A stretch of 49,576 nt of DNA from Escherichia phage HK639, in the sequence record NC_016158.1, one strand, 5' to 3'. Numbering within the stretch: the stretch's first letter is position 1; the number at the start of each line of letters is the position of its first letter. The notes below the pieces were generated by a model. That model saw only the letters and a program-made list of their open reading frames with translations, ran no database searches and had not been told where the DNA came from. The position numbers and the translations under genes are program-made. Positions 15,156 through 16,664 of this stretch are shown piece by piece.

Positions 15156-15365
15156 GTCGGCGCAAGGCTCGGTCTTGTTGGTTAAAATCTGAGCGCCTCT
15201 TTCAGATGGGGCCAAATACTACAGCAATCTTTTGGTTGGTGCATTGCTATCTGGACACGGTTTTTGTGCAAAAAGTGCTATTGAGCAAGATTTTGACCGT
15301 TTGAAGCGAACCATAGGTTCAACCTATCTCCTGTGATCGTGACAATAGTTTACTATTACCTGAGG

Positions 15366-15386
15366 GGCATTTTCTGCGAAAATGCC
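15366..15386. promoter_or_regulatory. 21-bp perfect inverted repeat (candidate operator) upstream of toxin cassette
   Basis: GGCATTTTC-TGC-GAAAATGCC; no T-run after it, so operator-like rather than terminator. Confidence 0.4.
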
Positions 15387-15571
15387 TTTAACTTGCATAG
15401 TGGCCGCCTCTAAGTTCGTCGAACGTGAATGGATCTTGAGCGATACGCCCGTTGCTCAAAAATGACGAATGGTATTAAGATGAATAACAGAACATGAATT
15501 TTATAGGGCTGAAGAATCTTATCTTCGGCCTTTCTTGTCAGAGGTGCTCCAAGGAAACTGGGAGGACGTTA

Positions 15572-16143
15572 TGCCTAAGAATGAAAAAGATAAGCGAAAT
15601 ATGCCTTTTTTTGATGCCTTTAAGACTACTGCCGCTATTGGTTTGCTGATGCAGCAAACAGCCGCATTACATTGCTCTGAAGGCCCGCAGCCACATCCAT
15701 CGTTTTACACTCTTCAGGCAAGTGTGGCAGCGAACGCGCACATGATTAGCCCTGAGATGGAGGAGTCCCTCGAATTCATCAAGGGGCTGAAAGAGATGTT
15801 ACAGAAAGGTTACGTTCTCCTTTCTGATGCTCACTTAAATGAGCGTGACTATTATATTCGCAAGCTGGACCCTGCTCAAACGGATCTGGTTGAACTTCAG
15901 CTACGCGGACTTGAGGGTGGTTTGAAAAACGTCTTTAAGAATTGCTCTGAGGCGGACAAAGAACTTCTGAAACCGTATTTGATGACGATTGCTGAAGCCC
16001 GCTCAGCTTCTACAAAGTTGAATCATTTAATTGCCCAAATGACTAAAGCTGCTGACAATTTCACCAGCGAGATTGATATGGAAGGGCTGCGTTCACTGGC
16101 AAAATATGGCACAGAGACCTTTTTCTCTGGTCGTTTCCATTGA
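15572..16143 (+). CDS. hypothetical protein, putative partner/antitoxin of YafO-like toxin
   Basis: ORF track 15535..16143; start at ATG 15572 after GGGAGG; 190 aa, no recognisable HTH; immediately upstream of YafO-like gene with 8-nt spacing. Confidence 0.5.
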
Positions 16144-16151
16144 GGTGAAGG

Positions 16152-16589
16152 ATGCACGTAACTGTCACATATAATGTTAAAAGTTACGACTTCTTCTTTA
16201 AACCTATCTTCCTTGAGTTTCCGCACTTGAAACAATCATTACTTGATGATTTTTCAGCATATAAGGCCACTAATCAGCTACCCCACTACTTTGGAAGAGA
16301 TACTGATTATGCAAGGCCAGCAGATATTCAGGGTTCTGGCCTTATGCATATCCATTTAGGTTTGCATGAGAACAAACTGCTAACACCTCAAGGTAAGCAG
16401 ATAGACTCCAGTACGCCACAGTGGGATAGAACCTCAGATTCGGCTTTGCTATATGCTCAGAATCTATTTGATGAAAATCAATATTCTCTTATCGCTCTCT
16501 TCGACCCGTTAGCGCACAGTAAAGCTCAGAATTTTGACCGAATGAGACTATTGGCATCGTATGCTTTAGAGTTTAAGAATCAAATCTAA
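16152..16589 (+). CDS. YafO-family toxin-like protein (ribosome-dependent mRNA interferase family)
   Basis: 145 aa; recalled YafO signature blocks present: FGRDTDY, MHIHLGLHEN, QWDRTSDSALLYAQNLFDEN, LIALFDPLAH...MRLLASYALEF; RBS GAGGTGAAGG. Confidence 0.6.
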   Translation: MHVTVTYNVKSYDFFFKPIFLEFPHLKQSLLDDFSAYKATNQLPHYFGRDTDYARPADIQGSGLMHIHLGLHENKLLTPQGKQIDSSTPQWDRTSDSALLYAQNLFDENQYSLIALFDPLAHSKAQNFDRMRLLASYALEFKNQI

Positions 16590-16611
16590 ACCCGCTTCGG
16601 CGGGTTTTTGT
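16589..16611 (+). terminator. rho-independent terminator (first of tandem pair)
   Basis: CCCGC-TTCG-GCGGG plus TTTTTG. Confidence 0.65.
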
Positions 16612-16629
16612 TTAATACGCTACATCCAA

Positions 16630-16653
16630 GCCCGCCTTATGGCGGGTTTTTTT
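16630..16653 (+). terminator. rho-independent terminator (second of tandem pair)
   Basis: CCCGCC-TTAT-GGCGGG plus TTTTTTT. Confidence 0.65.
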
Positions 16654-16664
16654 ATGGAGAAAAT

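Follow-up and report, generated by a model that had tools for sequence, protein, structure and literature searches.

YafO of Escherichia coli has been described as inhibiting growth by ribosome-associated mRNA cleavage (Zhang et al., 2009; Christensen-Dalsgaard et al., 2010). YafO toxins were previously paired with Phd or with unclassified 'guilt-by-association' sequences, and none were reported on phages (Leplae et al., 2011). PF_YafO was recently reviewed as a small BECR-fold family encoded in antitoxin-then-toxin order, with no other partner mentioned (Gerdes, 2025). Here, a cassette of two genes from Escherichia phage HK639 (NC_016158.1) was analyzed, encoding a protein of 190 amino acids (aa), hereafter the partner, followed by a YafO-family toxin. 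The window is the whole stretch of 49,576 nucleotides (nt), whose open reading frames (ORFs) are arranged as in a complete lambdoid phage genome and which corresponds to IMG/VR contig UViG_2597490004_000001; all positions refer to it. The cassette is probably a mobile, self-transcribed two-gene moron of temperate phages and prophages (Enterobacterales, Pseudomonas) that works as a type II-like toxin-antitoxin module with a new antitoxin family.

The cassette resembles YafN-YafO in its toxin and in its gene order. The downstream product, which an earlier note on this DNA (made by a model from the letters) had called YafO-like, was compared with profile models as that note had proposed, and the call held. 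It matched Pfam PF13957 at 73.8 bits (cut-off 25, E = 1.3e-20), residues 36-142 covering profile positions 2-100 of 101, and was 35% identical to E. coli K-12 YafO over residues 29-142 by BLASTP (E = 1e-15). The motifs YFGRDTDY, MHIHLG, QWDRTSDSALLYAQ and SLIALFDPLAH were read in the translation. Across 18 aligned sequences (phage homologues and E. coli YafO), 14 residues were invariant (D33, F34, P44, F47, G48, D50, Y53, H66, H68, L99, Y101, A115, H122, M131); H66 and H68 belong to the HIHL motif, and all family-invariant His, Asp and Tyr positions are kept in the HK639 toxin. The order of antitoxin then toxin and the very short gap are also shared with K-12, where yafN ends 2 nt before yafO. 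Unlike YafN-YafO, the cassette has, in place of the 97-aa Phd/YefM-type YafN, a helical partner of 190 aa whose N-terminus is signal-like, and it lies as a prophage moron between tape-measure and M-like genes rather than within an SOS-regulated dinB-yafN-yafO-yafP operon. The HK639 toxin is also longer at its N-terminus (145 vs. 132 aa) and falls in a separate 'long' clade with this extension; among the best 120 YafO-family clusters, 68 were at least 140 aa, 24 were 135-139 aa and 23 were of E. coli length. Antitoxin swapping on a conserved toxin is shared with other type II modules of the RelE/ParE superfamily, where a single toxin fold occurs with many antitoxin families unrelated to one another.

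Among prophage morons, gp15 of HK97 is a superinfection-exclusion gene that lies among tail genes and protects the lysogen. Like such tail-gene morons, the HK639 cassette is small and AT-rich, carries a promoter-like leader and a terminator of its own, lies among late structural genes and is missing from related phages. It is unlike gp15 in having two genes, one for a ribonuclease-type toxin, and in that exclusion is a predicted role for it. Tripartite toxin-antitoxin-chaperone (TAC) systems with a SecB-like chaperone are also mentioned in the recent review (Gerdes, 2025). The likeness to TAC lies in tying control of a RelE/HigB-type toxin to the protein-export machinery, whereas the HK639 cassette has no third gene and no SecB-like chaperone, and its export link is a hypothetical signal peptide on the antitoxin.

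Phage and prophage YafO toxins have repeatedly been reported as lone. Prophage surveys (Pseudomonas, Salmonella, tailocin clusters) record the YafO toxin, with the upstream gene not recognized as a partner, and a search of the literature library at hand returned no description of the partner family. The label 'YafM antitoxin' on one phage record was discarded as a clue: in one paper it is YefM mistyped, elsewhere it is a label assigned by a pipeline, and no experimental basis for it was found.

Pairing of the two genes was surveyed from both sides. From the partner side, a PF13957 gene was directly downstream in every locus with enough contig, including loci reached by profile matches of E ~1e-4 to 1e-5. 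From the toxin side, the 80 best IMG/VR loci were used: a partner-family ORF ended 3-20 nt before the toxin gene in 50 of 50 informative loci, a partial partner was present in 17 further loci cut at the contig edge, and 13 were uninformative. No YafN-type gene was found upstream of the toxin in this toxin-anchored set. The pair was likewise kept in all 4 phage records examined out of 14 INPHARED matches (E. coli PhiR40_1, two Pseudomonas phages, and a Klebsiella phage-plasmid), and the partner profile recognized the upstream protein in each of them. The earlier note had staked its reading on partner homologues occurring with YafO-like genes, and in this neighborhood survey they always did. Its description of the partner as novel stands in that the protein is uncharacterized, but the whole phage-borne YafO clade is regularly paired with it, and the exact HK639 pair is already in GenBank (ADO67701.1 and ADO67702.1, Escherichia phage HK639) under the names 'hypothetical protein' and 'YafO family toxin'. 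The partner thus represents an antitoxin-like family that is new, and widespread yet unrecognized.

The partner gene was called as a 202-aa ORF with a TTG start (15535..16143), and the first ATG (15571), 5 nt past a Shine-Dalgarno sequence (GGGAGGA), gives the 190-aa product. The earlier note had the length right, but its start at 15572 was corrected to the ATG at 15571; its 145-aa toxin ORF and 8-nt gap (16144..16151) agreed with the ORF reading. The partner is laid out as a hydrophobic signal-like segment (residues 11-35), a disordered linker (37-57), a helical bundle (61-186) and a tail ending in a conserved Phe-His. AlphaFold2 with a 29-sequence alignment gave a mean predicted local distance difference test score (pLDDT) of 74.7 and a predicted template modeling score (pTM) of 0.59, with the N-terminal helix at residues 16-32. 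The protein belongs to PHROG 8416, of unknown function (E = 7.6e-87), and had no match in Pfam, NCBIfam or PADLOC. Among 36 distant members of the family, 35 were without a Pfam match, and the PADLOC scan gave scattered single matches only, to unrelated models at E 7e-4 or weaker.

The partner is not related to YafN by these measures (no BLASTP alignment at E <= 100; hhalign probability 0.3%), and no DNA-binding domain (helix-turn-helix, ribbon-helix-helix, AbrB, Phd) was found in it by Pfam or NCBIfam, the model being an all-helical bundle. The earlier claim that it is not of YafN, RelB or DinJ type and lacks such folds was therefore upheld. The fold search that the note had proposed returned generic helical proteins only, and no specific structural relative; a weak lead to a FlgN-like export chaperone failed the profile test and was dropped. 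At 50% identity this small family comprises 47 clusters, in a set of 1.84 billion representatives. The Klebsiella phage-plasmid pJN2-26 (L004; labels of the form L0xx denote compared loci) and related 110-kb records carry a 136-aa YafO subclade, whose 205-aa upstream protein matches the partner profile weakly (E = 1.4e-9). This protein lacks the signal-like N-terminus and could be a naturally occurring 'signal-less' form of the partner, of use for comparison. A DNA-level search with the cassette gave no match in the phage collection or the E. coli genome collection, and tblastn with the partner against the phage collection at default sensitivity gave none either, while the partner profile does recognize phage homologues there.

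Several features of the pair are those of a toxin-antitoxin operon. Divergence was compared across 30 representative pairs (435 comparisons): the toxin was the better conserved of the two in 99% of them (mean identity 47% vs. 31% for the partner), and the divergence of the two was correlated (Spearman 0.62). The faster and correlated divergence of the partner is consistent with antitoxin-like evolution. The commonest gap between the genes was 8 nt (28/52 unique pairs). The junction xTGAGGTxxxxxTG recurs throughout the subfamily (partner relatives closest to the HK639 copy), and its Shine-Dalgarno sequence over the partner stop codon has the arrangement of translational coupling, as judged from the sequence. 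TTG or GTG starts, directly following the conserved xTGAGGTxxxxx junction, were found in 18 of 52 unique toxin genes (L008, L012, L019-L029 and others), so toxin output from these would stay below partner output; HK639 uses ATG. A terminator followed the toxin stop codon in 22 of 30 representative family loci.

To model binding, partner and toxin were fused by a 30-residue Gly-Ser linker and folded with AlphaFold2 from a paired alignment of 26 cognate pairs. The fused chain reached a pTM of 0.79, against 0.59 for the partner alone, and a mean pLDDT of 80.7, with the linker and disordered parts below 50. Partner residues 161-190 rose from pLDDT 70/83/71 alone to 94/94/83 in the co-fold and gained short beta bridges. 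The region of Q156, S166, I168, D169, L173, L176 and A177 is the most conserved block of the distant-family alignment. The N-terminal helix gained almost nothing (64/74 alone, 74/76 in the co-fold). These models indicate that the partner very probably binds the toxin directly via its C-terminal third (about residues 141-190).

The pair is most likely a type II-like toxin-antitoxin or abortive-infection moron, on the basis of its co-orientation, 8-nt gap, Shine-Dalgarno sequence over the stop codon, AT-rich composition, bounding terminators and occurrence at unrelated sites. The GC fraction was 0.41-0.47 over 15200-16600 and 0.52-0.58 in the adjacent tail genes, as the earlier note had seen, and the two tandem intrinsic terminators that it placed after the toxin gene were both found in the terminator scan.

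The cassette was found at many sites: between tape-measure and M genes (HK639, Enterobacter), in a myophage baseplate cluster (Yersinia, Pantoea), by dinI and an integrase gene, between tube and tape-measure genes, and by cI-like repressor genes. The tape-measure/M junction of phage Scapp, which has a related M gene, is 64 nt long and empty. The Enterobacter cloacae relative (L005, from CP135498.1; positions 1531-4539 of L005) carries other cargo between tape-measure gene and cassette, namely 320-aa and 101-aa ORFs without domain match, two Arc-like repressor genes and a P22 AR_N antirepressor-like gene. This different cargo marks the tape-measure/M site as a hot spot for accessory genes, in line with the earlier view of it as a cargo site, and the unrelated sites, the empty Scapp junction and the other Enterobacter cargo together show the behavior of a moron cassette. 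On many IMG/VR prophage contigs of E. coli type (L057-L086, L060-L082), the cassette was at the extreme edge of the predicted prophage, and the contig started at the partner or the toxin. The module was present in 52 of 5,426 complete E. coli genomes (~1%), adjoining a PrtN-family pyocin-activator gene, and in many Pseudomonas aeruginosa prophages; the exact HK639 partner and toxin proteins were also found in many Enterobacter cloacae complex genomes.

Roughly 420 nt upstream of the partner gene travels with the cassette. A putative cassette promoter was read in this leader from a weak -35 element (15452-15457) and an extended -10 element (15470-15478); the block ATGAnnAATGGTATTAra is kept in subfamily leaders that otherwise diverge, and the site was not called by a generic sigma-70 scan. 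A stem-loop follows (-15.6 kcal/mol, z = -5.8) with a T-rich tail. As MAFFT misaligned this terminator-like stem, it was judged sequence by sequence: hairpins of other loci have altered stem sequences that still pair (GCCGAAGC/GCTTCGGC, GCCGAAAC/GTTTCGGC, ACCAAGA/TCTTTGGT), and the hairpin is weak or absent in L024 and L008. This element, which sits past the putative promoter and ahead of the ribosome-binding site, resembles a terminator or attenuator. Downstream of it, GTCAGAGGTRCTCC...GGAGGAC was invariant across 15 leaders with diverging surroundings, and CUCC (15547-15550) can pair with GGAG (15561-15564) of the partner Shine-Dalgarno sequence. RNAalifold on the leader returned only this Shine-Dalgarno-sequestering hairpin, with no covariation because the paired bases never vary, and Rfam on the leader and terminators gave sub-threshold terminator look-alikes only. 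The leader elements suggest low, attenuated expression; the leader could act in operon control, or a short RNA could have its 3' end there.

A working model of the module was assembled from these elements. In a lysogen, the cassette would be transcribed at low level from its own extended -10 promoter, and the transcript would run through a leader with a terminator-like hairpin and a Shine-Dalgarno-sequestering stem. Partner and toxin would be translated in a coupled manner with the partner in excess, and the C-terminal segment of the partner (about 141-190) would clamp the toxin and hold it inactive. Freed toxin would, by homology to E. coli YafO, act as a ribosome-associated endoribonuclease that cuts mRNA, stops translation and arrests the cell. 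The pay-off would likely be abortive-infection exclusion of superinfecting phages, prophage stabilization, or both. The N-terminal segment may direct unbound partner to the membrane or to the Sec machinery, or anchor it there, and such routing could, as a speculation, supply the instability of free antitoxin that proteolysis gives classical systems. The disordered stretch (37-57) and the export-signal-like N-terminus are indirect hints only on partner instability.

The N-terminal segment differs among branches of the family. Textbook Sec signal peptides occur in many branches, complete with basic n-region, hydrophobic core, proline, and small residues at -3/-1 (for example, MNLSLRNCLAWFLFGGALTVPSFA-AE and MKTNSLLKHCFAAILSGGILSVPSYSLA-DV, the hyphen marking the cleavage site). 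The subfamily segment, MPFFDxFKTTAAIGLLMQQxAAxxC, is atypical for a signal: its hydrophobic core contains Gln-Gln, and its conserved Cys is preceded by His, Tyr or Pro. The HK639 copy ends in AALH before this Cys, matching neither a standard signal-peptidase I site nor a lipobox. A crude Sec-signal rule was passed by 35 of 58 partners within the subfamily. Conservation is above that of usual signal peptides (G24 and L26 invariant, M11-C35 nearly so, across ~50%-identical proteins), and the segment appears to be a degenerate but highly conserved signal. Cys35 was considered as a lipoprotein site and rejected, since ALH-C is no lipobox and a PROSITE-style pattern was found in only 6/58 subfamily and 9/55 other partners. 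An export-signal-like N-terminus has no described counterpart among antitoxins; the earlier note had passed over this segment, and it makes a simple antitoxin reading harder.

Several observations weigh against the toxin-antitoxin reading. PADLOC-DB 2.0 had nothing at E <= 1 for partner or toxin. Without a DNA-binding domain in the partner, classical antitoxin autoregulation is unlikely. The toxin is not an orthologue of E. coli YafO (66.5 bits vs. a cut-off of 153 for the NCBIfam equivalog PRK09885), and this shortfall leaves room for an activity unlike that of the E. coli protein. The co-fold covers the cognate pair only, and its interface was read from changes in confidence and secondary structure alone. 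Outside the HK639 subfamily, 53 of 55 partners passed the crude Sec-signal rule, vs. 0 of 47 toxins and 8 of 42 control ORFs, and a Pseudomonas phage homologue carries the UniProt auto-label 'Lipoprotein'. Export would keep the partner away from a cytoplasmic toxin unless the two bind beforehand or their binding prevents export.

The signal-peptide counts would suit a partner that is mainly exported (periplasmic or lipid-anchored) and has an envelope job, e.g., blocking the entry of superinfecting DNA in the manner of other envelope proteins encoded by morons, with the two genes linked by cooperation in exclusion and the toxin controlled otherwise (low expression, an unidentified inhibitor, or trigger-only activation). 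The charges around the hydrophobic segment fit an N-in, C-out orientation, the N-terminal helix has the moderate co-fold confidence usual for signal peptides, and the neighboring gene is also a lipoprotein moron. However, the strict one-to-one pairing, 3-16-nt gap and overlapping translation signals across the family are typical of proteins that act in stoichiometric pairs, the fused model places the mature helical domain on the toxin with its gain in confidence on the most conserved block, an unguarded YafO-type RNase in a lysogen would be expected to be harmful, and the signal of the HK639 subfamily itself is degenerate. An envelope role of this kind is considered unlikely. Also rather doubtful, and slightly more so, is an 'export-labile' antitoxin within the toxin-antitoxin reading, in which the partner would neutralize only as a cytoplasmic precursor and unbound partner would be drained via Sec, not by proteases. 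If it were true, toxin release would depend on how much new partner is made or on the condition of the envelope and the export machinery, e.g., when an infecting phage causes shut-off or damages the membrane, and both a new route to antitoxin instability and a new sensor input for toxin-antitoxin defense would follow.

A plain addiction or prophage-stabilization pair with no anti-phage role, its N-terminus being an evolutionary leftover or a hydrophobic toxin-binding helix, would draw equally on the evidence for direct binding and coupled expression, on the unusual conservation of the segment and on related positions (G, L, Q) that recur in the E. coli-type branch, but the near absence of co-fold gain in the N-terminal helix argues against toxin binding by it and most branches keep the full n-h-c signal architecture with proline and small -3/-1 residues, making this improbable. 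Equally poor is the prospect of a lytic-cycle role, with the toxin as an RNase for host shut-off or timing that the partner restrains until late read-through of the operon under antitermination: the cassette runs in the direction of the late operon and is embedded among tail genes in several unrelated phages, and late transcription must read through two terminators directly upstream of an essential tail gene in HK639, a phage that uses RNA-based antitermination, but elsewhere the pair adjoins cI-like repressors, integrase or dinI outside late operons, related phages manage with an empty junction, and the AT-rich composition, promoter-like leader and frequent terminator are those of an autonomous moron-type unit, typically expressed from the prophage.

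For the favored toxin-antitoxin moron, the partner family gives a partner to about half or more of known YafO-family diversity, and the module is common in clinically relevant hosts (Enterobacter cloacae complex, E. coli, Pseudomonas aeruginosa). If it is a defense system, the repertoire of prophage-encoded immunity gains an addition, and if the export signal is functional, toxin control of an undescribed kind would be involved. If neither defense nor export holds, the cassette is one more antitoxin swap on a known toxin, helpful for annotation and unsurprising; its logic is ordinary, as antitoxin swapping is common.

Table 1. Positions of the cassette, its signals and the flanking genes in the 49,576-nt window
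Feature	Positions	Strand	Basis or remark
Tape-measure gene, 1,024 aa	11530..14604		Upstream flank
Lipoprotein gene, 137 aa	14681..15094		Lipobox MQKLILVMGIIALVG-C; phrog_890 'lipoprotein', E = 2.4e-48
Intrinsic terminator of lipoprotein gene	15130..15158 (stem 15130..15151)	+	Terminator scan: 9-bp stem, 6 GC pairs, T-run
Inverted repeat, 9+3+9	15366..15386		GGCATTTTC-TGC-GAAAATGCC
Putative cassette promoter	15452..15478	+	-35 TTGCTC and extended -10 TGG-TATTAA
Leader stem-loop and T-rich tail	15505..15536 (stem-loop 15505-15532)	+	
Conserved leader GTCAGAGGTGCTCC...GGGAGGAC	15537..15570	+	
Partner gene, 190 aa	15571..16143	+	ORF; phrog_8416
Toxin Shine-Dalgarno GAGGTG	16142..16147	+	Read from sequence; overlaps partner TGA stop (16141-16143)
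YafO-family toxin gene, 145 aa	16152..16589	+	PF13957; phrog_1651
First intrinsic terminator	16588..16615 (stem 16588..16607)	+	Terminator scan; overlaps toxin stop codon; minus strand also scores
Second intrinsic terminator	16628..16657 (stem 16628..16649)	+	Terminator scan: 9-bp stem, 6 GC pairs; -15.7 kcal/mol
M-like tail gene	16665..17015 (ATG 16665)		PF05939; second terminator just upstream
L-like gene	17015..17785		PF05100

The inverted repeat lies upstream of the promoter-like block and both leader hairpins. The earlier note had described it as a perfect 21-bp inverted repeat: the repeat is real (-13.8 kcal/mol, z = -3.3 vs. shuffles), but it consists of two 9-nt arms and a 3-nt spacer rather than a continuous palindrome, and it is not conserved. 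The left arm reads GGTAATTTC in L005, the closest relative, whose partner is 94% identical; it has two changes there and no compensation, and the repeat is absent from more distant loci. On these grounds it was rejected as an operator and is probably functionally irrelevant. A small leader ORF (15494..15649) was rejected as a conserved gene, as it is not conserved in other loci. A sigma-70-like match on the minus strand (15851..15879; TTGAGC, 17 nt, TATAAT; 10/12 positions), antisense within the partner gene, may be meaningless, as the scan gave fewer promoter-like sites than expected by chance.

The tape-measure/M gap also holds the lipoprotein gene, with its own terminator, beside the YafO cassette; the earlier note had made no mention of it. 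This gene is a second, independent moron in the gap; envelope lipoproteins of prophage morons often block superinfection. Its terminator is the upstream boundary of the YafO cassette, and similarity to the Enterobacter relative begins right past it.

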